DNA of 64,000 bases from assembly GCA_002707835.1 (NCBI GenBank), contig PANZ01000010.1:31526-95525 (forward strand), written 5' to 3'. The notes under the pieces were generated by a model that ran no database searches, had not been told where the DNA came from, and worked only from the letters and a program-made list of their open reading frames with translations. The translations under genes were made by a program, and so were the position numbers. Source of the stretch: Chloroflexota bacterium (GTDB lineage: Bacteria; Chloroflexota; Dehalococcoidia; UBA2979). Each line of letters starts with the position of its first letter. The first letter of the stretch is position 1. Below are positions 1 to 52,630 of this stretch, one piece after another.

Positions 1-2875
1 ATATCGAAATACACTAAAGATTGCAGAACAAGTTGACATCTCACTTGATTTTGCCCGAACACTTCTTCCCGATTCAGGTGTTCCAGAAAACATCACACCT
101 TATGAATATTTACGTCAATTATGTATGGAGGGTTTGCATCGCAGATATCCCAATCTAACCGAACAGCAAACTCAAAGGTTGGATTATGAATTGAATATTA
201 TTGAACAAACAGGGTTTTCAGAATATATGCTGATTGTTCGAGATTTAGCACTATTTGCCAGGAAGCAAAAGATTCCTATGGGTGTAAGAGGATCCGCAGC
301 AGCGTCAATAGTTTTATATACATTAGATGTAACCGATATAGAGCCGACAGGTTACGGACTTGTTTTTGAAAGATTCTTAAATCCGGAACGTATTTCGATG
401 CCTGATGTGGATTTTGATTTTGCAGATGATCGACGTGAAGAGATCATTCGCTATGCGTCGGAAAGATATGGTAGAGATAAAGTTGCACAGATATGTACTT
501 TTGGAACTCTAGGTGCGAAAGCAGCAATTAGAGATACAGGTCGCGCACTAGGTGTGCCACTAAGTGAAACAGATCGATTAGCTAGGATGATTCCTGAGCA
601 ATTAAATATAACTATTGATAGTGCACTTGAAAAATCCTCAGAATTGGCTGAGATTTATACGAGAGATCCTGCCAGCAAAGAGCTAATCGATACTGCAAGA
701 AGTTTGGAAGGAGTCGCTCGACATGCTTCAACTCATGCAGCCGGTGTAGTTATTTCAAGACAGCCATTGATGGATGTTGTTCCATTGCAACGACCGACTG
801 GCGTTAAAGATCAAGATGCGTTGCCTACAACTCAATATGCTATGGCAGATGTTGAGAAGATTGGATTGCTGAAAGTTGATTTTTTAGGGTTGACCAATCT
901 TACTATTTTAGGAAAAGCGGTAAAGATCATAGCTGAATCAAAGGGCGAAGAAATTGATCTTACTAAATTACCGGATGGTGACAAGCTTACGGCAGAATTG
1001 TTGGCTAGCGCTGAAACGTTTGGTGTTTTTCAAATGGAATCGGCAGGGATGAGACGTTATGTTGCGGAATTACGACCAGAGAATATAGGAGAGCTTGCAG
1101 CTATGGTTGCTTTATTTCGACCTGGCCCTATGGAACATATTCCGCGATACATTGATGTTAAATTCGGAAAAGCAGAAGCACATTATCCACATGAAGATCT
1201 TGCCAATATTTTGGATGAAACAAATGGCGTGATTACATATCAAGATCAAGTTTTACAGATTGCCAGGCAATTCGCTGGATATACATTGGGTCAAGCTGAC
1301 GTTATGCGTAAAGCCATGGGTAAAAAAATTCCTGAAGTAATGCTACAGGAAAGACAGGGGTTTATTGAAGGTTCGATCGCTCAAGGGTATGAAAAGGAAA
1401 CTGCTGAAATACTTTTTGACCTGTTTGAACCATTTGCTGGGTATGCATTTAACAAAGCACATGCTTTTTCATATGCAACAATTGCTTACCAGACTGCCTA
1501 TTTAAAGGCTCATTATCCGTTGGAGTATATGACAGCGGTTTTAATGGCAGCGGGCGGTTCTCAAGATCGATTAGCAATGGCTATAAGAGAATGTAAGAGA
1601 TTAGATATTGAGGTTCTTCCTCCAGATATCAATCGTTCAGAGGCTAATTTTTGCATTGATCAACAACATGGTGGTTTTGGTATTCGTTTTGGCCTGGCGC
1701 AAATTAAGAATGTAGGTGATGCCGGAATTAAGAAGTTAATCGATGAACGTAGGTGCGATGGTGACTTTCTTTCAATAGATGATTTTGTCAGTCGGATTAA
1801 TCCGCGGGATGTTAACAAGAGGGTAATTGAGGCATTAGCAAAATCAGGTGCATTAGATGCGTTTAGTGATCGAGGTAAACTTATTGACGGGATTGATAGG
1901 CTAATACAGGTCGCCCAAGAGCAGTTTAAAATTCGAGAAACGGGACAAACATCGATGTTCGATCTGTTAGAAGATGAACAAACTCTGCAGGCTATTTCTT
2001 TAGATTCTTCTGAGATTGTTGAGCGTCAACTTTTGGTATGGGAGAAGGAATATCTAGGTACATATCTTTCGAATCATCCATTTCAAGAAATCTCCAGTAA
2101 TGTTAATCAATATGTAACTACACAAATGGTAGATATTGATGCATCTAGATCGGGAACTGAAGTTGTGATTGCGGGTTGGGTTACTAATGTACGCTCTCTA
2201 GTAACGAGACAAAATAAACAGTTTGCAATTGTAACGATGGAAGATTTTACAAATAGTATCGACTTAACAGTGTGGCCAGAACTGTATGAAGAGAACCGGG
2301 ATTCGATTGCTACTGATATTGCCTTGGTAGTAAAAGCGAAGATTCGATCACGTGATGGTCGATTGAATGTTGTTGCAGATCGAATTTTCATTTGCCCTGC
2401 AGAATTATCTCTAGAAAACAGAGATCAATTAGAACAATTAAGTATGAAAAACAATAGGAAGAGGGATCACTTTAGTGTAAAAGCAGAGCATACACGGATA
2501 GATAAGGATCCAATTACGCTAAAAGCCATAAAGACTTCTGATGCAGTTGAAACAGGACAGTTTAATGGAGATGGACAACAGAGAAAATTACGTATTGTTG
2601 TTGAAGAAACAACTGATGAAAATGCTGATGTCCGTCGATTAAGAAAACTATGTACAATTTTAGATCCTTACAGTGGTGATCTTCCTGTAGAACTTGTTAT
2701 CCAGCGTCGAGACGGAACAAAAGTGAAATTTACTCGCGGGACAGTGAATGAACGTTCGCTCGATACGATTGTTTCGCAGACTCGCATGCTATTAGGTGTG
2801 TTGGGTATTGTGGAAGAATTTACAGGTCTAGAGTCTGGATTATTTAACAATGGTTTGGCTGCTGCGAGTGGGTAG
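1..2875 (+). CDS. dnaE: DNA polymerase III alpha subunit (DnaE), 5'-truncated by the window edge
   Basis: The frame is open from base 2 with no stop (…IAEQVDISLDFARTLLPDSGVPENITPYEYLRQLCMEGL…), so the gene begins upstream of the window. The translation shows Pol III alpha palm/fingers and C-terminal OB-fold regions (e.g. GLLKVDFLGL, FNKAHAFSYA). Confidence 0.9.
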   Translation, partial: YRNTLKIAEQVDISLDFARTLLPDSGVPENITPYEYLRQLCMEGLHRRYPNLTEQQTQRLDYELNIIEQTGFSEYMLIVRDLALFARKQKIPMGVRGSAAASIVLYTLDVTDIEPTGYGLVFERFLNPERISMPDVDFDFADDRREEIIRYASERYGRDKVAQICTFGTLGAKAAIRDTGRALGVPLSETDRLARMIPEQLNITIDSALEKSSELAEIYTRDPASKELIDTARSLEGVARHASTHAAGVVISRQPLMDVVPLQRPTGVKDQDALPTTQYAMADVEKIGLLKVDFLGLTNLTILGKAVKIIAESKGEEIDLTKLPDGDKLTAELLASAETFGVFQMESAGMRRYVAELRPENIGELAAMVALFRPGPMEHIPRYIDVKFGKAEAHYPHEDLANILDETNGVITYQDQVLQIARQFAGYTLGQADVMRKAMGKKIPEVMLQERQGFIEGSIAQGYEKETAEILFDLFEPFAGYAFNKAHAFSYATIAYQTAYLKAHYPLEYMTAVLMAAGGSQDRLAMAIRECKRLDIEVLPPDINRSEANFCIDQQHGGFGIRFGLAQIKNVGDAGIKKLIDERRCDGDFLSIDDFVSRINPRDVNKRVIEALAKSGALDAFSDRGKLIDGIDRLIQVAQEQFKIRETGQTSMFDLLEDEQTLQAISLDSSEIVERQLLVWEKEYLGTYLSNHPFQEISSNVNQYVTTQMVDIDASRSGTEVVIAGWVTNVRSLVTRQNKQFAIVTMEDFTNSIDLTVWPELYEENRDSIATDIALVVKAKIRSRDGRLNVVADRIFICPAELSLENRDQLEQLSMKNNRKRDHFSVKAEHTRIDKDPITLKAIKTSDAVETGQFNGDGQQRKLRIVVEETTDENADVRRLRKLCTILDPYSGDLPVELVIQRRDGTKVKFTRGTVNERSLDTIVSQTRMLLGVLGIVEEFTGLESGLFNNGLAAASG

Positions 2876-2944: not shown

Positions 2945-3931
2945 ATGAGAGAAGAAATATTCGATCAGACTGATTTTAATGACTCCATGAAAGATCTCGA
3001 GATCATTCGTGAAGGCTTTACTAGTGTAATCTTTGGCCAGAGCCAACTTATAGAACGTGTAATCATTACGTTGTTAACCAACAACCACTGTTTAATTGAA
3101 GGTGTTCCTGGCCTTGCAAAAACGCTGACTGTACAGACATTGGCTAGTGTTTTTGATTTAGAATTTACGCGCGTGCAATTTACTCCAGATTTATTACCTG
3201 CTGATATAACAGGGACTATGATGTATGATCCCGGTCAAGGTCTATTTAATCCACATTTCGGGCCGGTTTTTACAAATATACTTTTGGCTGATGAAATCAA
3301 TCGTGCACCTGCTAAAGTTCACTCTGCCTTATTAGAGGCGATGCAAGAACAGCAAGTTTCTATGGGAGGGCAAAGTTATACTCTTCCGAAGCCATTCATG
3401 GTACTTGCCACACAGAATCCAATTGAGTATGAGGCGACATATGCATTACCTGAGGCTCAATTAGATAGGTTTATGCTTAAAATTGTCATTGACTATCCAA
3501 CACAAGCAGAGGGTCGAGAAATTTTAGATGCTTCATTAAATTATGATTTTCGAATGGTTGAGAGAAAAATTAATATCGATTCTCTAAACAAACTGTGCGA
3601 TATCGTGCGGAAGATCGTTATTGATGAATCGATTAGGGAGTATATATTGCGTATTGTGCATGCATCACGAAATCCTTCAGACTATGGTTTATCGAGCATA
3701 GAACCGATGATTGATTATGGAGCCTCTCCACGCGCTGCTACTTTTTTGGCGAAGGGATCACAGGCCTTGGCTTTCTTAAATGGTAGAGAATATGTAACAC
3801 CAGATGATGTTAAGGCATTGGCTCCAGATGTTTTACGACATCGGTTGGTTACTAGCTATGAGGCAGATGCAGCACAGATCACGGTAGAAGAATTGATTAG
3901 AACACTCCTAGAGCATGTGAATATAGCTTGA
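2945..3931 (+). CDS. MoxR-family AAA+ ATPase
   Basis: Walker A GVPGLAKT is present, together with the MoxR hallmarks FTPDLLPADITG and LADEINRAPAKVHSALLEAMQE. Length is about 320 aa. Confidence 0.85.
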   Translation: MREEIFDQTDFNDSMKDLEIIREGFTSVIFGQSQLIERVIITLLTNNHCLIEGVPGLAKTLTVQTLASVFDLEFTRVQFTPDLLPADITGTMMYDPGQGLFNPHFGPVFTNILLADEINRAPAKVHSALLEAMQEQQVSMGGQSYTLPKPFMVLATQNPIEYEATYALPEAQLDRFMLKIVIDYPTQAEGREILDASLNYDFRMVERKINIDSLNKLCDIVRKIVIDESIREYILRIVHASRNPSDYGLSSIEPMIDYGASPRAATFLAKGSQALAFLNGREYVTPDDVKALAPDVLRHRLVTSYEADAAQITVEELIRTLLEHVNIA

Positions 3932-3944
3932 ATATGAGTGGCAA

Positions 3945-4871
3945 ATGTTAAATTGGCAAAAAGATCATGTACAGACTTCTTTGAATGACTTGGATGAAGA
4001 TTTTATATCTTCACTGAATATCAAGATGAAACAACTAGAGTTACGTTCTCGTAATCTTGCATCATCAACTTTAAGAGGAGATTATCGGGCAAGTTTCCAT
4101 GGGAGTGGTGTCGAGTTTGCAGAATCTAGAGAATATATTTCCGGAGATGATACAAGGTTTATTGACTGGAATGTCACTGCAAGAATGGGCAACACGTGGA
4201 TTAAGCGATACGTGGAGGAAAGAGACCTGACAATTATTTTGGCTGTAGATACCTCAGCTTCTCAATTGGTTGCAGGAAGGCAGAATGGTCGAATTGGTGC
4301 TTCTGCAGAATTGGTGGCATTGATTAGTTTTCTCGCAGTTGAGAATCATGATCGAGTAGGCTTGATGCTCTTTGATAAGGAAGTTAATGAATATATCAAA
4401 CCTCAACATGGTGAAAAACACGCACACAGATTAGTTCGAACAGTGTTAGATCAGAAATATTTTGCCCTAGAGACTTGTATTACAGAAGCATGCGACCGTC
4501 TGACCAATGTACTTAGAAAAAAGTCGATAATTTTTTTGCTGTCAGATTTTACTAATTTAGAAGATCTTGGAAGCTTGCATAGAATGTCAAAACGCCATGA
4601 TGTAATAGCACTAGTCCTTACTGACCCCGTTGATTTTGTATTACCAGAGGTAGGACTTATACAAGTTCAGTCCATAGAAGATGGTTATTCAACCATCATT
4701 GATACCACAGATCCTGTCGTCCGAGAAAGGTATAGATTGCGTGCTAAGAATTTTTCTGAGTTGAGGAGTCAAAAATTTTCGTTGGCAAATGTGGGTGAAG
4801 TCAAAATTGATGTGACGCAAGACTTATTAAATCCGTTGAGTAATTATTTTAAACTGCGATCGGTAAGGTAA
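3945..4871 (+). CDS. DUF58-family protein (MoxR partner, degenerate VWA-like)
   Basis: It lies immediately downstream of MoxR. The motif ILAVDTSASQ (DxSxS-like) is typical of DUF58 proteins. The stop overlaps the next start (TAATG). Confidence 0.7.
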   Translation: MLNWQKDHVQTSLNDLDEDFISSLNIKMKQLELRSRNLASSTLRGDYRASFHGSGVEFAESREYISGDDTRFIDWNVTARMGNTWIKRYVEERDLTIILAVDTSASQLVAGRQNGRIGASAELVALISFLAVENHDRVGLMLFDKEVNEYIKPQHGEKHAHRLVRTVLDQKYFALETCITEACDRLTNVLRKKSIIFLLSDFTNLEDLGSLHRMSKRHDVIALVLTDPVDFVLPEVGLIQVQSIEDGYSTIIDTTDPVVRERYRLRAKNFSELRSQKFSLANVGEVKIDVTQDLLNPLSNYFKLRSVR

Positions 4872-5842
4872 TGAAAAAGCCACATGGTTGGTTGGTAGTG
4901 GCAATGGTAGTTATTTATGGTATTACTTTTAGTAGTATACATGCGCAAGAATATCCAGATTATGACGTTAGTGTTAGAACAAATCCGAACGAAGTTACAG
5001 TTGGAGATTTAATAGACATTACAGTAGAAATTTCACATAAAGAAGATGTTATTTTTACGATAACTGAACCAATTTTACCGTCGGGTATGGATATAGTATC
5101 GAGTGAAGATCAAATTAGTATTTTCGATCGAACGAGTGGAGATTTAGTAATATCGAGTCGGACTTTTAAAGTCGCTTCGTATGTACTCGATCTTCAAGCG
5201 AGTGGATACATTGATTTGTTATGGGTCGATTCAAAATTAGGCACAGGTAAAGTCAGCATAGATCTTCCTCAAATTAATATATATCCAACAAGAAATAAAG
5301 ATGATGGGTCCCTACGTCCATTAGCGCCTTTGTTTAGAGAGGAAGGCTTTTATAGTTTTAATTATCAAGAATTGCTAGCGATTAGTGGATTTTTCCTTTT
5401 GATAGCTTATTTGTTACTTCGTATTAGAAAACGGACAAGTAAAGAAGGTACATTCCCTATACAACACGATGAAGATATTGCAACAAATCGATTAAGTTTA
5501 TTAAGAGGAGTGAGTTTAGACTCTGTAAAAAATTATCGAGAATTTTATCAGTCGATAGATAGAATCATTAGGCAATATATTTCATCAAGATATAACATGC
5601 AGGCATCTTCGTTAACTGTAAAAGAATTAATTGTACTGGGAGATCTTGCCCAGATTGACAAATGGCAACTTCGTTTGATTAGAGATTTACTTAATCGCTG
5701 TGATGAAGTTATTTATGGCAATATTTTGCCTGATCCAATTTTAGCTGACCGTGATCTTACTATTGCATACGAGATTATAGAGTTAAATCGTGGAAGTGTC
5801 TCGGGCGAGATAACGACTAGGGATATCGAACATGAGATTTGA
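4871..5842 (+). CDS. Hypothetical exported/membrane protein of the Bat-like operon (possibly BatD-like)
   Basis: It has an N-terminal signal-like hydrophobic segment, one internal TM segment (LLAISGFFLLIAYLLLRI), and is translationally coupled on both sides. Confidence 0.45.
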   Translation: MKKPHGWLVVAMVVIYGITFSSIHAQEYPDYDVSVRTNPNEVTVGDLIDITVEISHKEDVIFTITEPILPSGMDIVSSEDQISIFDRTSGDLVISSRTFKVASYVLDLQASGYIDLLWVDSKLGTGKVSIDLPQINIYPTRNKDDGSLRPLAPLFREEGFYSFNYQELLAISGFFLLIAYLLLRIRKRTSKEGTFPIQHDEDIATNRLSLLRGVSLDSVKNYREFYQSIDRIIRQYISSRYNMQASSLTVKELIVLGDLAQIDKWQLRLIRDLLNRCDEVIYGNILPDPILADRDLTIAYEIIELNRGSVSGEITTRDIEHEI

Positions 5843-6782
5843 AAACATCGAATTTTTATGGCTTATTCCGATAGCATTCCTTTGTGTATTGTGTATTAGT
5901 TATATTGCTGCACCTCGGCATAACTTATGGATATCAAATGTAGAATTAATTCGAGGAGAGTTTAAATCAAATTGGAGGATACGTTTATGGTGGTTACCCT
6001 CTTTTTTAAAGGGGATAGTCATTTTATTGTTAATTTTTGCGCTGGCACGACCACAATTTGGATTGAAACGGATAGAAATCCCATCGGAGGGAATAGACAT
6101 TGTAATAGCACTGGATGCTTCTAGCTCGATGGACTTAGTTGCAAACAATATAAAAGGTGAATCACGCTTGGAGCAAAGTAAAAATGTTGTGGTTGATTTT
6201 GTCCAAAATTTTGCAGGTAACCGTATTGGATTAATTATTTTTCAGTCACGTACTTTGACTTTATCCCCATTGACCTACGATCATAACGCCCTTCGAAGGC
6301 AAATCGAATCAATAGAAACGGGAATGATCGACGATGGAACGGCCATTGGTCTAGGCATTATGGAGGCTTTGTCATTGCTTAAGAATTCTCCTGCAAAAAG
6401 TCGTGCGATTATTTTGCTGACTGATGGTCAGAATAATGTAGATGTTGTTTTACCAATACAGGCTTCGCGTGTTGCTGAAACTTTGGGAATCAAAGTGTAT
6501 ACAATTGGATTCGTTGGACAAGATTCTGTAAGTGGAATGACGATCGATACACAAATGCTGCACTTGGTCGCAGAGAGAACGGGTGGATTTTTTTACAATG
6601 CGAAGACAGTTGATGAATTGACAGCTGCCTATCAAGATATTTCTAAATTAGAAAAATCGAATTTGGCAGACATTACTTATTCTGTAGAGATGGATATCGC
6701 GCAATATCTTATTTGGTGCGCATTTGCATTAGTGGTGTTTGGATTTGTTTTTAAAAAGTTTTTTCTGCGGGTGTATCCATGA
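5832..6782 (+). CDS. VWA-domain membrane protein (BatA-like)
   Basis: N-terminal TM helices are followed by a VWA MIDAS motif IDIVIALDASSSMD and LLTDGQNN. Confidence 0.75.
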   Translation: MRFENIEFLWLIPIAFLCVLCISYIAAPRHNLWISNVELIRGEFKSNWRIRLWWLPSFLKGIVILLLIFALARPQFGLKRIEIPSEGIDIVIALDASSSMDLVANNIKGESRLEQSKNVVVDFVQNFAGNRIGLIIFQSRTLTLSPLTYDHNALRRQIESIETGMIDDGTAIGLGIMEALSLLKNSPAKSRAIILLTDGQNNVDVVLPIQASRVAETLGIKVYTIGFVGQDSVSGMTIDTQMLHLVAERTGGFFYNAKTVDELTAAYQDISKLEKSNLADITYSVEMDIAQYLIWCAFALVVFGFVFKKFFLRVYP

Positions 6783-8536
6783 ATTTTGATACTCCCATAT
6801 TCTTATTGGCTCTGATCTTACTACTGCCTTTTTATCTGTGGAGTAATCACTTGATTAGGGTTCGCAGGAGATATTTTGATATTGACGGTCAGAACCAGTT
6901 AATACGTTCAAGGTTTATTAATAAAACATATCAAGTAAAAAATTTTCTCTTAGTTTTATGTCTAGCGTTTCTAATAATTTCAATGGCAGGGCCAAGTTGG
7001 GGTAGTGTTGAACGTCCATATAAAAAGCAAGGGATAGATGTTGTGTTTGCGCTTGATATATCACGATCGATGACTGCTACGGATGTGATTCCTTCGAGAT
7101 TAGAAATGAGTGTTTTTGAACTTCAAAAGCTATTGCAACATCTGGAAGGCAATAGAGTGGGTTTGGTCCTTTTTGCAGGTAATGCAATTGAACGTGCACC
7201 TCTAACTTTGGATATCGATGCACTTTCCCAATTAATTGATCAAGCACAATGGGAGTTTCCATTAGTAAAGTCAGGGACTGATTTAGATGATGCTGTTTCA
7301 AAAAGCCTAGCACTATTGAGTGTGGAAGATTCAGCAAGCACACAATCGATAGTAATTATTTCCGATGGAGAAGATATAAAAGGTGTCAATTCTGAATCAA
7401 TTCAACAAGCTAACCTTGCCGGTATCGCTATATATACGGTAGCAGTTGGCACTGAATCAGGTGGCTTCATTCCGAACGATCTTTCAGGGGGAGGTGTCAC
7501 AAAAGTTGATGTTGAAAAGCTTAAAGGGATTGCCGAAATTACAGGAGGTATTTTTTTTCAGGTACAAGATATTGAATCAATAATATATGAATTACACAGA
7601 GGTGAAATTACTGAATTTAAGAACATCAATTATACGATGCCTAATGATATTAGCAGCTGGTTTGTGTGTATTGTTGTTTGCTTATTAGTTATTGATTTGG
7701 GATTAAATCATCGACTGTTTTCTAGTAAAAATCTATTCACATGGGGGATGGCTATTGTAATTATCAGTGTCATTCTTGGTGTGGGATGTAGTGATTCAAA
7801 ATGGTCAAGTAGTGTAAAAGCAGGGAATCAAGAATACCTAGAAGGAAATTTTGATTTAGCTCTTTCTCATTATCTTAATGCTAGAGAACTAGATAACGAA
7901 GATCCATTGTTGGCATATCATTTATCTAATGTATTGCATTATTTAGGAAGAGATGATGAAGCGGCAGTTGTGGCCCAACAAGCTTTACTGAAAACTGATG
8001 ATGTTAGTTTGAAATATTTAATACACTATGCGATGGGTACCTATGCATTTGAAAGAGGGATGCTCGAGAGCGCTCGAGATCATTATATTCGATCTCTACA
8101 GTTACAGCCGACCCATAATTATTCAAAGCAAAATTTGGAATTGGTCTTAAGTTTACTTATGACAAGAGAAATTACACAACAAGAGTTAAGTCAGCCTTCT
8201 GGATCAGAGAACGCAGTGCCACAAAATGAAATTAATACCAATGGAGATCAATTAACTAATGCACAGTCGATTACAACTGCTAATGATATTACTGGGAAGG
8301 ATACGGGAGGATTAAATACAAATACGGAGAAACAAGATCCAGTTGAAGAAAATCAGATTGAAACAGAAGATCTTATATCTGAGGTTCAAAAATCGTTCCA
8401 AAGTGAATTAATTGATGATTCAAATGTTTTAACCAGATTAGAAGCTAATAATCTAGTGCTTTTAATACAAAGATGGAATGAACTTCAAAGAGAAGAGGAG
8501 CTGTCTCAAGAATTATTTAGCATTGATGAAAGGTAA
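6779..8536 (+). CDS. VWA-domain plus TPR-repeat membrane protein (BatB/BatC-like fusion) with an acidic low-complexity tail
   Basis: VWA motifs IDVVFALDISRSMTA and IISDGEDI are present, then a TM helix, then TPR-like repeats (YLEGNFDLALSHYLNA…). The start overlaps the previous gene by 4 bp (ATGA). Confidence 0.7.
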   Translation: MNFDTPIFLLALILLLPFYLWSNHLIRVRRRYFDIDGQNQLIRSRFINKTYQVKNFLLVLCLAFLIISMAGPSWGSVERPYKKQGIDVVFALDISRSMTATDVIPSRLEMSVFELQKLLQHLEGNRVGLVLFAGNAIERAPLTLDIDALSQLIDQAQWEFPLVKSGTDLDDAVSKSLALLSVEDSASTQSIVIISDGEDIKGVNSESIQQANLAGIAIYTVAVGTESGGFIPNDLSGGGVTKVDVEKLKGIAEITGGIFFQVQDIESIIYELHRGEITEFKNINYTMPNDISSWFVCIVVCLLVIDLGLNHRLFSSKNLFTWGMAIVIISVILGVGCSDSKWSSSVKAGNQEYLEGNFDLALSHYLNARELDNEDPLLAYHLSNVLHYLGRDDEAAVVAQQALLKTDDVSLKYLIHYAMGTYAFERGMLESARDHYIRSLQLQPTHNYSKQNLELVLSLLMTREITQQELSQPSGSENAVPQNEINTNGDQLTNAQSITTANDITGKDTGGLNTNTEKQDPVEENQIETEDLISEVQKSFQSELIDDSNVLTRLEANNLVLLIQRWNELQREEELSQELFSIDER

Positions 8537-12164: not shown

Positions 12165-13127
12165 CTAATTACTACCACGGGCGCGATCTCCGGGTACCCT
12201 TACTCGTCCGATTATTTCATCAATAATTTGATCATTGCTGACACCGCGTATGTGCGCACTAGGATCGATGATTATTCGATGTCCCAAAGTTGGATAAGCT
12301 AAAATCTTTACGTCATCTGGTTGGACAAAATCCCGCCCTTCAAGCATGGCGTATGCTTGAATTGATCGCATTAATGCCAAAGATCCCCTTGGTGAGGCAC
12401 CGAGATAGATATTTTCATGCGAACGAGTAGCATTTACCAAATCAACAATATACTGCTTCACTAAAGGATCGATGTAGATATTCTTAACGTTTTGTTGTAG
12501 TTGTTTGATTTCTTCAGGAGTTGTTATTGGAACAAGGTTTTCAAGCGGATGTTTTGATTGCTGGGAATCCATAATATTAATTTCTTGTGCAGGGGTAGGG
12601 TATCCAAGATTGATATGGATTAAAAAACGATCTAACTGTGCTTCAGGTAAAGGAAAAGTTCCTTCATATTCGATAGGATTTTGAGTTGCGATTACCATAA
12701 ATGGACTGGAAAGATAATGGGTATCCCCGTCCACTGTAATTTGGTTTTCTTCCATGGCTTCAAGTAATGCAGATTGTGTTTTAGGGGTGGCTCGATTAAC
12801 TTCGTCCGCTAGGACAATTTCAGAGACAATTGGCCCTGCGTGAAATTCGAACTCACCTGTTTGTTGCTTATAAATTGTGACACCAGTGACATCAGAAGGC
12901 AGTAGATCAGGTGTGAATTGTATACGTGAGAATTGACATCCTGTAGATTTTGCTATCGATCTGGCAAGTATTGTTTTACCAACTCCCGGAACATCTTCAA
13001 TAAGTAAGTGACCATTACACAGCAATGCAATTAGGGAGAGCTTAATTTCATGTTCTTTACCAAGAATTACAGTGGTAATATTATCGATAATTTTCTGGGT
13101 CGTTAATTGTGGATTATTCAATTGCAC
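12165..13127 (-). CDS. MoxR-family AAA+ ATPase (paralogue of 2945..3931)
   Basis: GVGKT, FTPDLLPSDVTG and LADEVNRATPKTQSALLEAMEE are present. It is clearly paralogous to the first MoxR. Confidence 0.85.
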   Translation of the reverse strand: MQLNNPQLTTQKIIDNITTVILGKEHEIKLSLIALLCNGHLLIEDVPGVGKTILARSIAKSTGCQFSRIQFTPDLLPSDVTGVTIYKQQTGEFEFHAGPIVSEIVLADEVNRATPKTQSALLEAMEENQITVDGDTHYLSSPFMVIATQNPIEYEGTFPLPEAQLDRFLIHINLGYPTPAQEINIMDSQQSKHPLENLVPITTPEEIKQLQQNVKNIYIDPLVKQYIVDLVNATRSHENIYLGASPRGSLALMRSIQAYAMLEGRDFVQPDDVKILAYPTLGHRIIIDPSAHIRGVSNDQIIDEIIGRVRVPGDRARGSN

Positions 13128-17755: not shown

Positions 17756-18783
17756 TAGCGGACCTCGTACATTAGTGCACTCATTAATTCAGCTATATAT
17801 CTAACACGTGGGATAGATCTAGGATAATCCATGCGCTTAGGGCCCAGTACTGCGACCGTGCCATTTGAAATGCGATCGCCAAAAGAGCTTATAATTACAC
17901 TCCATTCACGCATTAATTCATCCCCATGTTCTTCACCAATAAGAACATGCGTTGTTCCTGGTTCTACTTTAGGCGAATGCTCAATCAACATACGAAGGTG
18001 ATAAGCATCGAGATTCTCAATCGCCTCACGCATTTGATTGACATCCGTAAATTCTGGTTGATTTAAAACAGTACTTAACCCATCTAGATAGGCCTCATGT
18101 TGTCCTTGTTGATTGATGGAAAGTTGAAAAATAGCATCGATAATAATATTGTCATCAATTTTGTTGTTTATATTGATAGATTGCCGACCTGATTGCGGGG
18201 AAGGGTCTTTCAAATTTTGATTTAGTGTTTCTGCATATATGTTGAGTTCATTTTGTAGATAGGGTCGAGATAGGTTAAGAATTTTTTGCCCTATAAATCC
18301 ATTATTCATTACAACCACAAGCATTACCGATGTACCGTTTAGTTCTACGAGCTGAACGTGTTTGAGAGATGTTGTTTCCGCAGAGGGTCTTATTACCATT
18401 GCGATTCCACCGACAGTTGTGGAAAGAATAGTTGCAGTTAGACTTAACCACTCATCTAAACCACCATTGACTTGGTGCAATTGATGCTCAATAGTTCGCA
18501 TTTCATCAAAACTAAGAGGTTTTTCATCCATCAAGGATTCAACATAATGTCTGTATCCTTGATCGGAGGGAATGCGACCTGCTGAAGTATAAGGGTGAGT
18601 AATATATCCATTTTCTTCTAATTGTGCTAACTCATTACGTATAGTTGCACTAGATAAAGGGAGCTCTTGCCGACTGGCAAGCAGTCTTGAGCTGACAGGA
18701 GTCGCAGACTCGATATATTCGTCTACGACTAATTCCAAAATCGATTCTTGTCTTTGTGTTAACACATTTCCCTCTATTGGCAC
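17755..18783 (-). CDS. hrcA: Heat-inducible transcription repressor HrcA (GTG start)
   Basis: The N-terminal winged-HTH region is RQESILELVVDEYIESATPVSSRLL. It is the first gene of the dnaK operon, and CIRCE elements lie upstream. Confidence 0.9.
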   Translation of the reverse strand: MPIEGNVLTQRQESILELVVDEYIESATPVSSRLLASRQELPLSSATIRNELAQLEENGYITHPYTSAGRIPSDQGYRHYVESLMDEKPLSFDEMRTIEHQLHQVNGGLDEWLSLTATILSTTVGGIAMVIRPSAETTSLKHVQLVELNGTSVMLVVVMNNGFIGQKILNLSRPYLQNELNIYAETLNQNLKDPSPQSGRQSININNKIDDNIIIDAIFQLSINQQGQHEAYLDGLSTVLNQPEFTDVNQMREAIENLDAYHLRMLIEHSPKVEPGTTHVLIGEEHGDELMREWSVIISSFGDRISNGTVAVLGPKRMDYPRSIPRVRYIAELMSALMYEVR

Positions 18784-18803
18784 TCTATGCGTTAGAGTGC
18801 TAA
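18777..18803. promoter_or_regulatory. CIRCE operator (TTGGCACTC-N9-GAGTGCTAA) overlapping the hrcA start
   Basis: It differs by one mismatch from the consensus TTAGCACTC-N9-GAGTGCTAA and lies downstream of a sigma-A-like promoter on the minus strand. Confidence 0.7.
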
Positions 18804-18861: not shown

Positions 18862-18888
18862 TTAGCACTCTCATACATTGACTGCTAA
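18862..18888. promoter_or_regulatory. CIRCE operator (TTAGCACTC-N9-GACTGCTAA)
   Basis: The left arm is perfect and the right arm has one mismatch. It lies upstream of the hrcA promoter -35 box. Confidence 0.7.
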
Positions 18889-19030: not shown

Positions 19031-20026
19031 ATGACATTTTTTGCAAAAATTTCTGCAACCGGCGCGTACCTTCCAGAGAAGGTATTGACTAATTTTGATT
19101 TAGAGCAATTGGTTGAGACTAATGATGAATGGATCCGTGAAAGAACTGGTATTCATACGCGTCACATAGCTGCACCAAATGAAAGTTCAAGTTCATTAGG
19201 TATTCATGCTGCTACACGTGCACTTGATGCAGCTGGAGTAAATGGGAAAGAAATTGATTTGATTTTAGTAGGAACCTGTACTCCTGACGGGATGTTCCCT
19301 TCTGTTGCTAGTCATATTCAAAATGCCGTGGGTGCGATCAACGCTGGAGCATTTGATGTTAATGCAGCGTGTACTGGATATTTGTCAGCACTTTCGACTG
19401 CGACTCAATTTATTGAAAATGGATCGGTAAAAAAAGCTTTGGTTGTCGGAGCAGAAACTTTGTCTAGAATCGTTGATTGGTCTGATCGAACTACCTGTGT
19501 ATTGTTTGGTGATGGTGCGGGTGCCACTCTCCTAGAAGCTTCTTCAGAAGAGAATTTAGGTTCAATTCGATCTTTTGTTTTACGATCGGATGGCGGGCAG
19601 GCCGATGCCTTGTTTGCCGGTGGCCCTGGTGCACCTATGGATCATCCGATTAAAAAAGAAGCACATATTATGATGGATGGGCGCGCAGTATTCCGAGCAG
19701 CAGTTGAAGAAATGAGTAAAGCTTCATTAAATGCTATACATGATGCAGGGCTTTCATTAGATGATATTTCATTATTGGTGCCCCATCAGGCCAATGAAAG
19801 AATAATTCGTGCCCTTGCCAGAAATCTTAATTTTCCGATGGAAAAAGTTTTTATGAATGTTGAGAAATACGGTAATACTTCAAGTGCAACTATTCCAATT
19901 GCTTTGCACGAGGCCAATACTGCAGGTCTTATCAAACCAGGTGATTATGTTCTTATGACTGTGATTGGTGGTGGTTTAGCGTGGGGTGCAATGGTTGTTC
20001 AATGGAGTGATTATTGTGCTAGTTGA
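19031..20026 (+). CDS. fabH: 3-oxoacyl-ACP synthase III
   Basis: The N-terminus is GAYLPEKVLTN…TGIHTRH, and the catalytic Cys (AACTGY), His (PHQAN) and Asn (GNTSSAT) motifs are all present. Confidence 0.9.
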   Translation: MTFFAKISATGAYLPEKVLTNFDLEQLVETNDEWIRERTGIHTRHIAAPNESSSSLGIHAATRALDAAGVNGKEIDLILVGTCTPDGMFPSVASHIQNAVGAINAGAFDVNAACTGYLSALSTATQFIENGSVKKALVVGAETLSRIVDWSDRTTCVLFGDGAGATLLEASSEENLGSIRSFVLRSDGGQADALFAGGPGAPMDHPIKKEAHIMMDGRAVFRAAVEEMSKASLNAIHDAGLSLDDISLLVPHQANERIIRALARNLNFPMEKVFMNVEKYGNTSSATIPIALHEANTAGLIKPGDYVLMTVIGGGLAWGAMVVQWSDYCAS

Positions 20027-20050: not shown

Positions 20051-21262
20051 ATGACAAACTTAGTTGATACAGAGAGTGCCTTAAATCGTCGAGTTGTTAT
20101 TACAGGTTGTGGAGTTGTTTGCTCATTAGGTCGTACCTCATCAGAAGTATGGGAGGCAGTTGAAAATAATCTTTCAGGTGTTAAGTTGATTTCGCAGTTT
20201 GATACTTCAAAATATAAGACAAAAATTGCTGCAGAGATTGATGATATTGAATCCTTGGGGCATAGGTTCAAGCAAGAATACTGGGATGGATTAGATAAAA
20301 CTGCACAATTTGTCGTAAGTGCTGGACTGAGTGCCTTTGAAGATGCTTCATTAAATTTCACACCACAAAACTCTAGTGAAGTTGCCGTTGTCATTGCTTC
20401 ACAATGGCAAGAAAGAAATTCAACATATCAACCTGCAGAAACTTTAGCTGGTTTACTTGGAGTAACTGGGAAAGTATTACAAGTTAATCCTCATGCTGCA
20501 GGTGGAATTGTTGCTATTAGTGAAGCAGCTGAAATGATCAGGCGAGGGGATGCTTTAGTAGCATTAGCTGGCGGGGTAGAAAATCCAATTACCCCTGAGA
20601 CTCTTTCTTTTTATGAGGAAAGAGATGATTTATCAGTAAATAATGCTTCACCTACCAAAGCATCCCGGCCATTAGATTTAAATAGAGATGGTTTTGTTAT
20701 TGCTGAAGGTGCTGCAATTGTTGTGTTGGAAGATTTAGAAGTTGCACAAGTACGAGGTGCAAACATTCTTGCAGAATTAGAAGGTAGCAGTTATGTCTTT
20801 TCACCAGGAATGAGTGGTATCCCCAAAATATCAACTTCACAGATTGCGAAGTCAATCTTGTCAGCTGTTGATAAAAGTGGTCGGATTCGTTCAGAGATTG
20901 ATGTGGTGTATATGAATGCCTCCGGAAGCTTAGAAGAAGATGCTTTGGAAGCGAAAGGCATACAGAGTGTTTTTGGTGCAGCTACAAGGCATCATATGTA
21001 CACTCCTGCACTTAAAGGACATACGGGTAACATGTTTAGCGCTTCAGGGCCATTAGGAGTTATTGTATTAACTGAAGCAATGCAAAGAGGGAAAATACCA
21101 TCAACTTTAAATCTTGTTGATGATGATCCGGAGATTGATTTGGATGCTAATAAAATTTCTGTGAAAGACGATATAATTTCTGTGTGTATAGTAAATGCAA
21201 TAGGTGGACCTAATAATGCAACATTAGTTATTTCTCATCCGAGAGTAATGCGAGATTTTTGA
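20051..21262 (+). CDS. KAS I/II (FabF)-family ketosynthase-like protein lacking the Cys-His-His catalytic triad
   Basis: The thiolase fold is present with VVITGCGVV at the N-terminus, but the three catalytic positions are substituted when aligned to FabF. The TAC(T/S)SG site reads HAAGGIVAISEAA, NAHGTST reads NASGSLEE, and KSMTGHLLGAAG reads KGHTGNMFSASG. Compare the intact fabF at 47220..48479. Confidence 0.8.
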   Translation: MTNLVDTESALNRRVVITGCGVVCSLGRTSSEVWEAVENNLSGVKLISQFDTSKYKTKIAAEIDDIESLGHRFKQEYWDGLDKTAQFVVSAGLSAFEDASLNFTPQNSSEVAVVIASQWQERNSTYQPAETLAGLLGVTGKVLQVNPHAAGGIVAISEAAEMIRRGDALVALAGGVENPITPETLSFYEERDDLSVNNASPTKASRPLDLNRDGFVIAEGAAIVVLEDLEVAQVRGANILAELEGSSYVFSPGMSGIPKISTSQIAKSILSAVDKSGRIRSEIDVVYMNASGSLEEDALEAKGIQSVFGAATRHHMYTPALKGHTGNMFSASGPLGVIVLTEAMQRGKIPSTLNLVDDDPEIDLDANKISVKDDIISVCIVNAIGGPNNATLVISHPRVMRDF

Positions 21263-21280: not shown

Positions 21281-21928
21281 TTGGAGTTGGCTTTGGATAT
21301 TACTTGGCTAGGTTATTCAGCTATGCGGTTACGAACTCGTAATGCGACTGTAGTTATAGATCCTACAGATAAATCTTCTGGAGTTGATATGGCACGTCCG
21401 ACAGGGGATATAGTTCTTATTAGTCGTGATCATATACACCATAATTTTGTAAGTGGAGTCAAAGGTACACCATTTGTTATTGATGGCCCTGGTGAATATG
21501 AAGTTGGAGGAGTACAAATTCAAGGTGTTCGTTCTCGATGGTCTGTATCGCAAGAAGATGTTTTTGAACCAACTACATTTTATATATTGCAAGCGGAAGA
21601 TATGAAAGTTGTCTATTTGGGGGGGTTGAATGAAATCCCAGATCCTAAGCAAATTCAAGTTTGTTCGAATGCAGATATTGTGATTGTCCCCATTGAAGTC
21701 CCTGAGGGTCTAAGTCCTCAAGATATGGCACGACTTGTAAGATCTCTTGAACCTAGAATGGTAATTCCTACTGCTTATCAGGTTGAGGAAAAGAAGAAAG
21801 AAGATGCATTGAATTCTTTTATTAATGAAATGGGAGTAGAAGTTGAAGATGCAGTACAGCGTTTGAGTTTGCAACGTCGCAGTATTGGTGATAAAACGCG
21901 GATTGTTTTATTGAACTCGAGGGGATAA
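21281..21928 (+). CDS. MBL-fold metal-dependent hydrolase (UPF0173-like)
   Basis: The N-terminus is LDITWLGYSAMRL…VVIDP…DHIHHNF. It probably uses a TTG start. Confidence 0.6.
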   Translation: MELALDITWLGYSAMRLRTRNATVVIDPTDKSSGVDMARPTGDIVLISRDHIHHNFVSGVKGTPFVIDGPGEYEVGGVQIQGVRSRWSVSQEDVFEPTTFYILQAEDMKVVYLGGLNEIPDPKQIQVCSNADIVIVPIEVPEGLSPQDMARLVRSLEPRMVIPTAYQVEEKKKEDALNSFINEMGVEVEDAVQRLSLQRRSIGDKTRIVLLNSRG

Positions 21929-23246: not shown

Positions 23247-24704
23247 TTAATCTTGAATTTGTGCTTGTGCCATTGATTTCATTGAAGCTAAAAATTCTTC
23301 ATTGGATGCTGTTTTTGGAAGTTGGTTAATCATTATTTCTGCCATACTTCCTCCATCACCTTCTATCCAAGCAGCCATTCGCCGCATCAGCCAGACCTGT
23401 TGTAATTCCTCTTCTTCATAAAGTAAGTCGTCTCTTCGTGTGCTTGATCCTACGACATCGATAGCTGGGTACATTCTTTTTTCTGCTAGCTTTCGAACAA
23501 GGCGTAATTCCATATTTCCAGTTCCTTTGAACTCTTCAAAGATCACGTCATCCATACGGGAGCCAGTTTCTATTAAGCAGGTTGCGATAATGGTTAGAGA
23601 GCCACCCTCTTCAATATTTCGTGCTGCTCCAAAAAATCTTTTTGATGGATAAAGAGCTATTGGATCGACACCCCCTGAGAGAGTTCGTCCACTGGTAGGC
23701 ATTGCAGTGTTATATGCGCGTGTTAATCTAGTGATAGAGTCCATTAATATTACAACATCGGTACCGCCTTCAACTAAACGTTTTGCACGTTCAAGGGCAG
23801 CTTCAGTTACTCGAGTATGATCTTCAGCAGGATCATCAAAAGTAGATGCAATTACCTCTCCAGTAACGGATCTTTTCATATCTGTTACTTCCTCGGGTCT
23901 TTCACCTATAAGAAGTATCATGAGATGAATATCTGGATAGTTATTCGTAATTCCATGTGCTATCGATTTAAGAAGTAGTGTTTTACCAGCCTTAGGCGGT
24001 GAAACAATTAGCCCTCGTTGTCCACGACCAATAGGAGAAACAAGGTCAACCATTCTTTGGCTTAATTCTTCTTCTATTACAAATGTTCCCTCTTTTTGCG
24101 TGTTTGGCGTACCTGAGCCAAATAAGCGTAACATTTCATTGGGGAAAACCGCTGTTAAAGAATCGAATTCTGCTCTACGTTTAGCAGCTTCTGGGTCAAG
24201 GCCGTTAACTGTTTCTACTCTCCGAAGTCCATAATATTTTTCAGAATCTTTGGGTTGACGTACCTGTCCACTTACATAGTCGCCAGAACGTAGTCCGAAC
24301 CTACGAACCTGTGATTGAGAAACATAAACATCATTCGGCCCAGGTCGTAGTCGTTCACCTCTTAGGAACCCAAAACCGTCATCAACAACATTGAGTATTC
24401 CTCCTGAAAAAATGCTTCCATTTTTAAGAGCTTGTTTTTGTAATATTCGATAAATCAACTCTTGCCGAGGAAGCCCATCAGCATTTTCTACCTCGAAATC
24501 ATTTGCGACATCTATGAGCTCATCTCGCGGCGTCGCATCAAGTTCAGAGATATTTACCGAAGGAACATCAGGATCTGTTGGAGGCAGTTGCTCTTCTTCA
24601 CGATCCCAATCTCTAGGTGGGCGTGTTGGTCTGCCTCGACGTCTTCGTCGTCCATCGGGTCGTTGTTCCGTAGGGGTTTCACGCCCACGCTGAGTACTTG
24701 TCAT
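23247..24704 (-). CDS. rho: Transcription termination factor Rho with an Arg-rich N-terminal extension
   Basis: Walker A reads [11 protein letters not shown], and the RNA-binding and ATPase domains are present. The N-terminus is low-complexity (…[24 protein letters not shown]…). The ATG at 24704 (MTSTQRG) is preferred over the GTG at 24740 used by the ORF track. Confidence 0.9.
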
Positions 24705-24818
24705 ACGTACCTTTATGAATATTTTTATGAGAACTGTCACCGGTTAGCAACGGCGTAATTCTAACTAGGGTTTTGTAATTCTTCAAGTATTATTACAAAT
24801 ATTCTTAATTTTTTTCTA

Positions 24819-46548: not shown

Positions 46549-47223
46549 TTAATCTAAATTCACTTTAGGCTGTGTTGTAACAAAACTTTCTACCACTTCA
46601 CTTAAGTCACTTACATTACTACTAATTTCGATGGAGTCATCTTTAATGAGTTCTAGTGTTCCTTGTGATTCACTTTCTTTAAGTACATTTTCTACTGTTT
46701 GAGGTAATGCTGGCAGTTCATTTGGGTTTGTTAAACCAAAATGCTCTAAAAATCTTTGCGTAGTTGCAAATAATGCTGGTCTACCTGGCCCTGGGGCACG
46801 TCCCTTAATTTCAATTAAATTTCGATTTCGTAAGGTAGCTATTGCCCCCCCGCTATCCACGCCTCTGATCGTATCAATTATGTGGCGAGTTACAGGTTGT
46901 CTATAAGCTATGATCGCTAATGTTTCTAATGCTGCAGTTGAAAGACGACGATTCGCTTCTAGTCCTAAAAAATATTCGATAATACTTGCTGTATTTGGTG
47001 AGGTCACAAATTGTACACCGTCTGGACCAATTTGTAGATTTATCCCTTTTTTCTCTGAATTGTAATCTTCAATCATAATGTCTAGTATTTTATTGATTTG
47101 TGAAGGTTTTATTTCCAACACTTTGGCGAGATTTAAGATTGTTATGGGTTCTTCAGCTACGAATAATATAGCTTCTATTAGTGCAGGATAATTATTTTCG
47201 TCATGTTTTTCAGTTGAAATCAT
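46549..47223 (-). CDS. scpB: Segregation and condensation protein B
   Basis: The N-terminus is LIEAILFVAEEPITILNLAKVL, and two winged-helix repeats are present. Confidence 0.85.
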   Translation of the reverse strand: MISTEKHDENNYPALIEAILFVAEEPITILNLAKVLEIKPSQINKILDIMIEDYNSEKKGINLQIGPDGVQFVTSPNTASIIEYFLGLEANRRLSTAALETLAIIAYRQPVTRHIIDTIRGVDSGGAIATLRNRNLIEIKGRAPGPGRPALFATTQRFLEHFGLTNPNELPALPQTVENVLKESESQGTLELIKDDSIEISSNVSDLSEVVESFVTTQPKVNLD

Positions 47224-48479
47224 TTAGGTTCCTTATATTGTTGGATTATTAAAACTGCATTTTGCCCACCAAAACCAAAAGAGTTCTTAAGAACAGTTTC
47301 AACATTAGCTGAACGTGAAGTTAATGGTACATAGTCAAGATCGCACTTTGGGTCCGGAGTTTCAAGATTTAATGTAGGTGCAATTTGATTTGTTAGGATT
47401 GTTTGTATAGCTGCTATTGTTTCCGTTGCACCGGATCCTCCTAGCATATGACCAGTTTGAGATTTGAGTGCACTAATTGGAATCTTCTTAGCTAAATCTT
47501 TAAAAATAGTCTTAATTGCTTCAGTTTCTGCGATATCACCTGCATTGGTTGCAGTAGCGTGAGCTGATATATAATCTATTTCGTCAACTGTTGTATCAGC
47601 ACTTAAAAGTGCTGATCGCATTGCACGTGCAGCACCTTCTCCACCGTCAGAAGGTGCTACTAAGTAACTAGCGTCAGCGCTAACTCCATATCCAATGAGT
47701 TCAACAAGGGGTGTTGCGCCGCGTGATAGGGCATGGTCAAGTGATTCAAGTACCAGCATTCCTGCACCTTCTGCTGGTACGAAACCATCTCGTTCTTTGT
47801 CAAAAGGTCGTGATGCTGAGTGAGGTTCATCGTTATGCGATGTAGATAACGCGCGCATAGTGGCGAATCCGGCTAACCCCAATTCACATATACCTGCTTC
47901 TGTACCACCAGCGAGCATGACATCAGCTTTATTGTGTCGAATTATTTCAGCTGCCTCTCCGATCGCTTGGGTTCCTGAAGCGCAAGCAGTAACTACAGTA
48001 TTCGTGTATCCAAGGATTCCAAGCTGGATTGATACATTTGCTGCTGCCATATTTGGTAACCATTTTGCAACGTATAGGGGATCTATGCGCATGCCATTCT
48101 TCTCAAAAAGTGTTCGGTTTGCTTGTTCTACCAATGGATAGCCACCACCTCCATTACCACAAACTATTCCCATTCTAGTTCTATCGATCTCTTCTATATT
48201 TAAACTTGCATTTTGAATACTTTGTCGTGCAGTAGCGACAGCGAATTGGGAAAATCGTGCCATTCTCCTAGCAGATTTTTTATCCATATACTCGGTAGGA
48301 TCAAAATCTTTGATTTCACCGGCCACCTTGCATGGGTAGTTACTAGTATCTAAATGTGCGAAGTTGTCAATTCCTGAAATTCCGTTAATAGCTGATAACC
48401 AGAATTCTTCAATTGTATTTCCTATTGGAGTTATAACGCCCATACCTGTAACTACGACGCGTCGATATTGGTCTGACAT
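47220..48479 (-). CDS. fabF: 3-oxoacyl-ACP synthase II (canonical, triad intact)
   Basis: The Cys site is VVTACASGTQAIGEAA, and the two His sites are ISAHATATNAGD and KSQTGHMLGGSGA. Confidence 0.92.
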   Translation of the reverse strand: MSDQYRRVVVTGMGVITPIGNTIEEFWLSAINGISGIDNFAHLDTSNYPCKVAGEIKDFDPTEYMDKKSARRMARFSQFAVATARQSIQNASLNIEEIDRTRMGIVCGNGGGGYPLVEQANRTLFEKNGMRIDPLYVAKWLPNMAAANVSIQLGILGYTNTVVTACASGTQAIGEAAEIIRHNKADVMLAGGTEAGICELGLAGFATMRALSTSHNDEPHSASRPFDKERDGFVPAEGAGMLVLESLDHALSRGATPLVELIGYGVSADASYLVAPSDGGEGAARAMRSALLSADTTVDEIDYISAHATATNAGDIAETEAIKTIFKDLAKKIPISALKSQTGHMLGGSGATETIAAIQTILTNQIAPTLNLETPDPKCDLDYVPLTSRSANVETVLKNSFGFGGQNAVLIIQQYKEPK

Positions 48480-48505
48480 AATTTCAGAAATCCTTCTTGT
48501 ATATG

Positions 48506-51656: not shown

Positions 51657-51672
51657 ATTAGAAGAGGAGATT

Positions 51673-52590: not shown

Positions 52591-52630
52591 TTTCTAGCTA
52601 TTTTATGGTCTTTTTCTTTGGCTCACTCCA

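Follow-up and report, generated by a model that had tools for sequence, protein, structure and literature searches.

A putative pseudo-ketosynthase of FabF descent in the fabH operon of Dehalococcoidia

Why should a bacterium keep, directly behind fabH, a gene for a ketosynthase (KS) whose catalytic residues are gone? The question is raised by an open reading frame (ORF) in a 64,000-nucleotide stretch of a Chloroflexota bacterium of the class Dehalococcoidia (assembly GCA_002707835.1, contig PANZ01000010.1, positions 31,526 to 95,525; hereafter the window), which we call KSL for KS-like pseudoenzyme. Specialised pathways do use non-catalytic KS partners, namely those of type II polyketide synthases (PKS), of aryl polyenes, of cispentacin and, most recently, of ladderane lipids. 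A preliminary description of the window, made from the letters alone, had marked KSL as a catalytically dead ketosynthase directly downstream of fabH, and an intact fabH gene is indeed its upstream neighbour. As judged from sequence comparison, KSL is an independently evolved pseudo-ketosynthase that is fixed in a core-genome fabH operon across the Dehalococcoidia, and it probably serves as a non-enzymatic helper subunit. Precedents for a dead KS exist, but a class-wide one in housekeeping type II fatty acid synthesis (FAS II) will surprise the specialist in fatty acid or polyketide synthesis.

KSL has the thiolase fold of the β-ketoacyl-ACP (acyl carrier protein) synthases (KAS) I/II. Both Pfam domains, ketoacyl-synt N (8.4e-29) and C (2e-14), are present, and an AlphaFold2 (AF2) model built from an input alignment of 47 family sequences reached a predicted local distance difference test score (pLDDT) of 89.5 and a predicted template modelling score (pTM) of 0.92. 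The top PDB matches of the model in Foldseek were FabF structures (TM 0.88-0.91), led by FabF of B. subtilis (4LS5/4LS8) and followed by the enzymes of Synechocystis, Vibrio cholerae and P. aeruginosa; E. coli FabF came lower and actinorhodin KS-α first appeared at rank 40. On the FabF profile TIGR03150 KSL scores 228.7 bits, below the equivalog cut-off of 493.75, as do the relatives P0021 (273.5 bits) and P0064 (225.5 bits), and none of the NCBIfam cut-offs was reached by KSL or by members of its family. No curated family claims KSL, and the proviso of the preliminary description that it might turn out to belong to a known one does not apply. The same description had called the protein a full-length KAS I/II fold: this is right for the fold, but not for the length, since 25 residues corresponding to the helix-loop-helix at FabF residues ~110-140 are deleted. 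Only ten residues lie between the invariant Ser117 and Pro128, compared to 35 in most relatives, and the AF2 model of the long-form relative P0021 has two lid helices (residues 121-132 and 136-144) where the KSL model has none. In FabF, this lid lies over the substrate site and has a part in dimerisation.

For the active site, the E. coli FabF numbering was used; the reference sequence was verified at 24 of 24 numbered residues quoted in PMC7138838. Alignments by HMMER to solved FabFs and by MAFFT to the FabF of the window, to the relatives and to E. coli FabF were all concordant: the Cys163-His303-His340 triad is replaced entirely, by Ala149, Asn289 and Asn327. The loss of all three residues had been noted, and the exchanges of Cys to Ala and of the second His to Asn were found as described, also in the alignment with E. 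coli FabF that had been proposed as a check. The first His had been thought to be Ser within YMNASGS; here the register was off by one, and the residue aligned to His303 is Asn289. Catalytic residues at shifted positions are excluded, since HMMER and two MAFFT alignments alike place Ala/Asn/Asn at 163/303/340.

The losses go far beyond the triad. At sites that are invariant in 51 of 51 canonical FabFs, KSL carries G105A, G107Q, I108W, D265S, T305S and F400G, and G401 is deleted; across the family the changes are G105A, G107E/Q, I108R/W, C163S/A/G/Y, D265S, T305A/S, F400W/G and, again, the deletion of G401. The exchange at Ile108 is predicted to place a bulky residue, Trp or Arg, in the acyl pocket. 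The GFGG gating loop and Asp265 of loop 2, whose roles in FabF have been described (PMC7138838), are replaced by GG-P and Ser, respectively. The basic residues with which FabF docks ACP (K65, R68, K69 and R127/K128; PMC7138838) are Glu, Asp, Gly or deleted in KSL, and K65, R68, K69 and K128 are non-basic or deleted throughout the family. What KSL retains of FabF is the ASRPxD..RDG segment, D311/E314/K335, N396/G399/N404 and the helix after the Cys site, which is still FabF-like in the family (AIxEAAxMIRRGDA). This helix is the core dimer-interface helix in FabF. KSL and FabF thus share fold and domain order, but KSL is without triad, gate, pocket, lid and ACP docking. On these alignments condensation by KSL is ruled out, and canonical ACP-dependent chemistry is improbable, since neither the nucleophile nor the acyl pocket, the gate or the docking surface is left.

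KSL might nevertheless be an enzyme of a different kind. It could decarboxylate malonyl-ACP, in the manner of a KS-Q or of a KS with Cys exchanged for Ser/Ala, and so provide the acetyl-ACP for initiation; or it could have a new site made up of Ser117, Arg313-His314-His315 and Tyr317. Most members of the family keep His303, His340 and Lys335 with Ser or Ala at the Cys site. KS mutants with Ser, Ala or Gln in place of Cys retain or gain malonyl decarboxylase activity, and a heterodimer from anammox bacteria that contains a triad-less FabF homologue decarboxylates malonyl-ACP. Furthermore, Ser117 and an RHHxYxP motif are invariant in 47 of 47 members. However, a KS-Q combines the replaced Cys with intact His303, His340, Lys335 and ACP docking, and in KSL both His residues are Asn. 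The basic docking residues are lost family-wide; most other members keep His-His-Lys, and these may be decarboxylases. Thr305, the GFGG gate and Asp265 are gone family-wide, with Arg or Trp at Ile108. The His pair was lost in at least three lineages, to Asn/Asn in the marine clade of KSL, to Asp/Asp in P0064 and P0121 and to Asp/Glu in P0023, and the classical decarboxylation site is therefore dispensable. These variants are orthologues at the same genomic position; therefore, their common function cannot depend on the classical active site. An enzymatic role of KSL is, in our view, quite improbable.

The family itself is sharply delimited. The matches among 5.8 billion proteins searched fall into three tiers: ten proteins of the full 403 residues, with 84-100% identity to KSL, and one fragment of 343 residues, from marine metagenomes and Dehalococcoidia metagenome-assembled genomes (MAGs); about 55 proteins of 428-470 residues and 45-57% identity, labelled Dehalococcoidia or Chloroflexi; and, past a clear gap, ordinary FabFs with at most 37% identity. 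Public data contain a protein identical to KSL (P0001, which stands for a cluster of 23 sequences), and in relatives at 84-86% identity one finds the same catalytic-site states or Ser149, so the substitutions are not sequencing noise. When 1.84 billion representative proteins were searched with a profile, only two family representatives were found (712 and 591 bits), together with neither intermediates to other families nor members outside the Chloroflexota. The next single-domain match (P0227, 334 bits) lies outside the family, and the rest of the list consists of multi-KS megasynthases. P0227 has Gly at the Cys site and Tyr at His303 but keeps His340; it is an unrelated triad-defective KS. 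From these searches KSL appears to define a distinct family, seen in MAGs of Dehalococcoidia/Chloroflexota only. In public records its members are labelled "3-oxoacyl-ACP synthase II", "beta-ketoacyl-ACP synthase family protein" or "hypothetical protein", full-text literature searches gave no description of it, and the family thus appears to be undescribed. The alignment suggests a series of degeneration in which Cys was lost first, then the His residues and then the lid; the KSL of the window is its most degenerate form.

Such a series could also be read as decay: KSL would be the functionless remainder of a fabF that once stood in an ancestral fabH-fabF operon, and would be on the point of disappearing. 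The progression from a family-wide loss of Cys to a loss of His and lid in the marine clade is in line with this, as is a genome of Chloroflexota type outside the family in which an active fabF adjoins fabH. The gene order there is reversed, and this one genome makes a positional descent of KSL from fabF suggestive only. However, the ratio of non-synonymous to synonymous substitution rates (dN/dS) of KSL against its two closest orthologues (loci L005 and L006) is 0.115; the gene is therefore under purifying selection and functional. The same comparisons gave 0.06 for fabH, 0.04 for dnaK, 0.08-0.16 for grpE and 0.17-0.18 for the downstream gene, which codes for a protein of the metallo-β-lactamase (MBL) fold; values for hrcA and rho against L006 were frame-extraction artefacts and were disregarded. 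Class-wide, KSL diverges about as much as FabH and HrcA (identity between the window and locus L001 52% for KSL, 56% for FabH and 57% for HrcA), no complete locus has a broken reading frame, although the lineages share only 43-57% protein identity, family-specific motifs are strongly conserved, and the gene has been retained in a compact marine genome of 38% GC. Selection and conservation effectively refute the relic, and we give it hardly any credence. A pseudogene or an assembly artefact is likewise excluded, by the dN/dS, the identical public protein and the intact orthologues.

What is conserved in the family is no longer what is conserved in FabF. GtGIGG of FabF has become ASERPEE, DAxH has become TFSPG, AHGTST has become LHAAGS, SSTKSMTGH has become PALKxHTGH and FGFGGHNA has become TGW-AHNA. 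New family-invariant elements are RF..YW, SGRIQSEID, (T)RHHxYxP and a C-terminal extension with HPxAMR. These motifs point to a new constrained surface, and RHHMYTP, the form of the motif in the window, is a candidate for a new interface.

For the genomic context, we compared 38 related loci, four obtained by exact protein look-up and 34 from GTDB species representatives, all of them Dehalococcoidia/Chloroflexota MAGs. In nearly all, hrcA-grpE-dnaK lie on one strand and the trio of fabH, KSL and MBL-fold gene on the opposite one, followed by genes for an M23 peptidase, Rho, a transaldolase, a DUF2269 protein and PyrG. The end of fabH is at most about 40 nt from KSL, on the same strand, in 31 of the 33 loci with upstream sequence; this tight spacing argues for co-transcription of fabH and KSL. 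A scan for promoters and terminators of the fabH-KSL-MBL operon gave nothing above shuffled expectation. The most constant companion of KSL is the MBL-fold gene, which follows it in 35 of the 35 loci that retain downstream sequence. That KSL is no standard part of FAS II loci, as had been stated, is true in general, but within the Dehalococcoidia it is fixed in the fabH operon.

The MBL-fold protein is itself unusual. Its HxHxDH motif is degenerate, reading SRDHIHHN in the window and SHDDPLRN or SHRNNPLCT in relatives, and an alignment of 37 sequences (the window and 36 orthologues) has no His column with a conservation of at least 90%. The operon thus probably contains two pseudoenzymes, KSL and this one. 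FabH, on the other hand, is intact (Cys114/His252/Asn282) and, with 423 bits on NF006829, is well above the cut-off of 249. A canonical fabF with intact triad is present elsewhere in the window, as had been noted, and is the only active enzyme of the KAS I/II type there. The large ORFs of the window include no further FAS II or PKS genes; of the small ORFs in the size range of ACP, only a part was scanned. The preliminary description had also advised to look for ACP or partner genes nearby: no PP-binding, ketoreductase (KR), cyclase, ACP or PKS tailoring genes are present within 6 kb on either side in the Pfam-annotated loci L001, L002/L003 and L004.

How does KSL relate to dead ketosynthases whose function is known? 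The chain-length factors (CLF) or KS-β subunits, such as the actinorhodin CLF (1TQY_B), Iga12, ApeC and AntE, are also proteins of the KS fold without the nucleophilic Cys, and the preliminary description had likened KSL to them. A CLF, however, exists to partner an active KS, whereas for KSL such partnering is a proposal. The gene for a CLF adjoins that of an active KS-α in a biosynthetic cluster with dedicated ACP and tailoring genes, whereas KSL has no KAS I/II gene beside it and lies in a core-genome operon with fabH upstream and the MBL-fold gene downstream, the same in relatives. Aromatic CLFs have Gln at the Cys site; this residue never occurs in the KSL family (Ser, Ala, Gly or Tyr). 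In HMMER, KSL scores 163 bits with FabF but only 102 with the actinorhodin CLF. KSL is thus no bona fide CLF or KS-β.

A closer parallel is amxFabFmut of anammox bacteria, a triad-less FabF homologue in which Val/Thr takes the place of Cys and Asn/Glu/Cys that of His, and which forms with amxFabF2 a functional KS/CLF-like heterodimer that decarboxylates malonyl-ACP (PDB 9s5h; bioRxiv 10.64898/2026.05.19.726425). Like KSL, amxFabFmut has the FabF fold in a context of fatty acids rather than aromatic polyketides, the whole triad is replaced, and the closest structural neighbour is B. subtilis FabF; the lid is disordered or altered in amxFabFmut and deleted in KSL. In contrast, amxFabFmut is encoded beside an active FabF paralogue in a ladderane cluster with its own ACP, whereas KSL lies beside FabH in a housekeeping block without ACP. 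The heterodimer was demonstrated for amxFabFmut, while KSL is known from sequence and model. KSL gave only 99.8 bits with 9s5h_B, compared to the 163 bits with FabF; the two proteins are therefore of independent origin. Membership of KSL among bona fide CLFs or amxFabFmut proteins is ruled out by context and similarity.

A third system resembles KSL in its gene neighbourhood. PqsB, a subunit of the heterodimer PqsBC encoded in the pqsABCDE operon, is a dead subunit of thiolase fold beside an active KAS III-type enzyme and the MBL-fold thioesterase PqsE. This is an analogy for which no homology is claimed: PqsB is FabH-like, whereas KSL is FabF-like, and PqsE is an active metallo-hydrolase, whereas the MBL-fold neighbour of KSL is without a conserved metal motif.

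Strong constraint together with new conserved surface motifs argues for a binding role of KSL. The earlier suggestion of a scaffolding or regulatory KS paralogue is still the best reading, as far as it concerns a non-catalytic KS paralogue. Among the roles of KS folds that have lost the triad, partnering an active KS is documented best, and we therefore favour a FabF-derived pseudoenzyme that is a structural, CLF-like subunit of the housekeeping FAS II condensing machinery; by analogy with CLF and amxFabFmut, we give this tentative reading not quite an even chance. KSL would share its transcript with FabH and would be a non-catalytic subunit in stoichiometric amount. The KAS II thiolase fold and the core dimer helix are preserved. 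KSL would be unable to take up acyl chains, to decarboxylate malonyl-ACP or to dock ACP canonically. Most likely, it would pair through a FabF-type interface with an active condensing enzyme, as CLF does with KS-α and amxFabFmut with amxFabF2, and in this heteropair it may alter the substrate tunnel or the stability of its partner. The FabF of the window is a candidate for the dimer partner, being the only protein there with a predicted interface of the matching type. Beyond what was observed, that is, the fold, the loss of catalytic and ACP-docking residues, the class-wide conservation, the operon linkage and the purifying selection, we infer the action through protein-protein association as well as the identity of the partner.

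Several observations weigh against a CLF-like partnership. A distance of 26 kb separates KSL from the only FabF-type gene of the window, whereas the genes for CLF and amxFabFmut adjoin those of their partners. The helix-loop-helix lid, which takes part in FabF dimerisation, varies within the family, where it is acidic, and is deleted in KSL. Two loci keep KSL without an adjacent fabH: in L028 there is only a sigma-factor gene at the position of fabH, and in L036 hrcA is directly upstream of KSL. Synteny across the class extends over all 12 kb of the block (hrcA-grpE-dnaK / fabH-KSL-MBL / M23-rho-tal-pyrG), and adjacency alone is therefore weak evidence of functional coupling. Finally, a mirror-tree analysis with 16 taxa gave no specific co-evolution signal, with partial correlations of 0.07 between KSL and FabH and of 0.15 between KSL and the MBL-fold protein.

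Alternatively, KSL may work with its operon neighbours, either as an accessory or regulatory subunit of FabH that tunes initiation or senses acyl-ACP, or in a non-enzymatic complex with the MBL-fold protein. The narrow fabH-KSL gap is in favour of this, as is the constancy of the MBL-fold gene, which follows KSL also in L028 and L036; with the metal motif degenerate in the MBL orthologues, two pseudoenzymes seem to travel together, and the family-specific motifs of KSL lie outside the old active site. However, literature searches revealed no heteromer of a KAS III with a protein of KAS II fold, and we know of none that has been reported; the FabH of the window scores as a typical FabH, the mirror-tree correlations are low, and in a region that is syntenic as a whole the linkage may be historical. 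A partnership with the neighbours is thus possible but, on balance, rather unlikely. It is tempting to speculate further that FabH is served by both co-transcribed pseudoenzymes, one of FabF fold and one of MBL fold, in the initiation of fatty acid synthesis in Dehalococcoidia, be it as a cross-family complex or as a regulatory module of its own that gates primer choice or flux. To our knowledge, such an architecture of FabH with a FabF-fold and an MBL-fold pseudoenzyme is undescribed for any FAS II system, and we consider it unlikely.

Whatever its partner, KSL is part of the core genome and of the fabH operon, class-wide, in abundant and mostly uncultured marine and subsurface bacteria. If it does partner FabF or FabH, a control of the substrate tunnel or of initiation, of the KS/CLF type, would extend to ordinary membrane-lipid synthesis, and a handle on the unusual lipids of Dehalococcoidia would be at hand. 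The family is also a natural series of pseudoenzyme degeneration, useful for asking what the KS fold needs as a partner. In metabolic reconstructions of these MAGs, ketosynthase labels on KSL genes overstate the condensing capacity. The features of the locus are compiled in Table 1.

Table 1. Position of KSL, of its altered sites and of associated genes in the window
Feature	Position	Strand	Remarks
KSL (KS-like pseudoenzyme), FabF/KAS II fold	20051..21262	+	403 aa ORF; evidence from Pfam, AF2, Foldseek, family alignment and dN/dS
Lid remnant, residues 117-128 (SQWQERNSTYQP)	20399..20434	+	From alignment and AF2 models
Ala149 (GCT), site of nucleophile Cys163	20495..20497	+	Family (n=47): Ser 34, Ala 10, Gly 2, Tyr 1, Cys 0
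Asn289 (AAT), site of His303	20915..20917	+	Family: His 38, Asn 6, Asp 3
RHHMYTP motif (R313, H314, H315, Y317, P319)	20987..21007	+	Family-invariant; no counterpart in FabF
Lys322 (AAA), equivalent of Lys335	21014..21016	+	Kept in 47/47 members
Asn327 (AAC), site of His340	21029..21031	+	Family: His 37, Asn 8, Glu 1, Asp 1
fabH (KAS III)	19031..20026	+	Same frame and strand as KSL; ends 24 nt upstream of it
MBL-fold (Lactamase_B_3) gene	21281..21928	+	Pfam; 18 nt downstream of KSL
Canonical fabF	47220..48479	-	TIGR03150 538.9 bits (cut-off 493.75); intact triad

Upstream of fabH, the divergent intergenic region towards hrcA contains two inverted repeats resembling CIRCE (controlling inverted repeat of chaperone expression), at 18777..18803 and 18862..18888. 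They read TTGGCACTC-N9-GAGTGCTAA and TTAGCACTC-N9-GACTGCTAA, each with one mismatch to the consensus TTAGCACTC-N9-GAGTGCTAA; the first overlaps the start codon of hrcA, and both are expected operators of HrcA. In some relatives, a gene of the sigma-70 family (regions 2 and 4) lies on the same strand directly upstream of fabH (L002/L003, 4279..4881; L004, 4427..4927) or, in L028, directly upstream of KSL (1528..2520). In these relatives the operon may thus begin with a sigma-factor gene of its own; no such gene is present in the window. The canonical fabF (neighbourhood 46549..49876, minus strand) is flanked by a folC-like Mur-ligase gene and by scpB, the start of which shares 4 nt with the stop of fabF; the same arrangement is found on two independent marine contigs (L040 and L041), and the FAS II genes are scattered in the genome.

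Three further regions of the window deserve mention. Rho (23247..24740, minus strand) has an N-terminal, Arg-rich extension of low complexity and comprises 497 residues, compared to 429-472 in relatives. At 50691..53731 (plus strand), three genes of gluconeogenesis type follow each other, for a class I fructose-1,6-bisphosphatase (FBPase; PF00316), a DeoC-type aldolase (PF01791) and an archaeal-type FBPase_3 (PF01950); the FBPase_3 ORF matches its profile from position 49 only, and the true start may be upstream of the called TTG. Two genes code for MoxR-type AAA+ ATPases, in the region 2945..8536 (plus strand) and at 12165..13127 (minus strand), and the first is followed by genes with DUF58 and VWA domains, a cluster of the BatA-like aerotolerance type.

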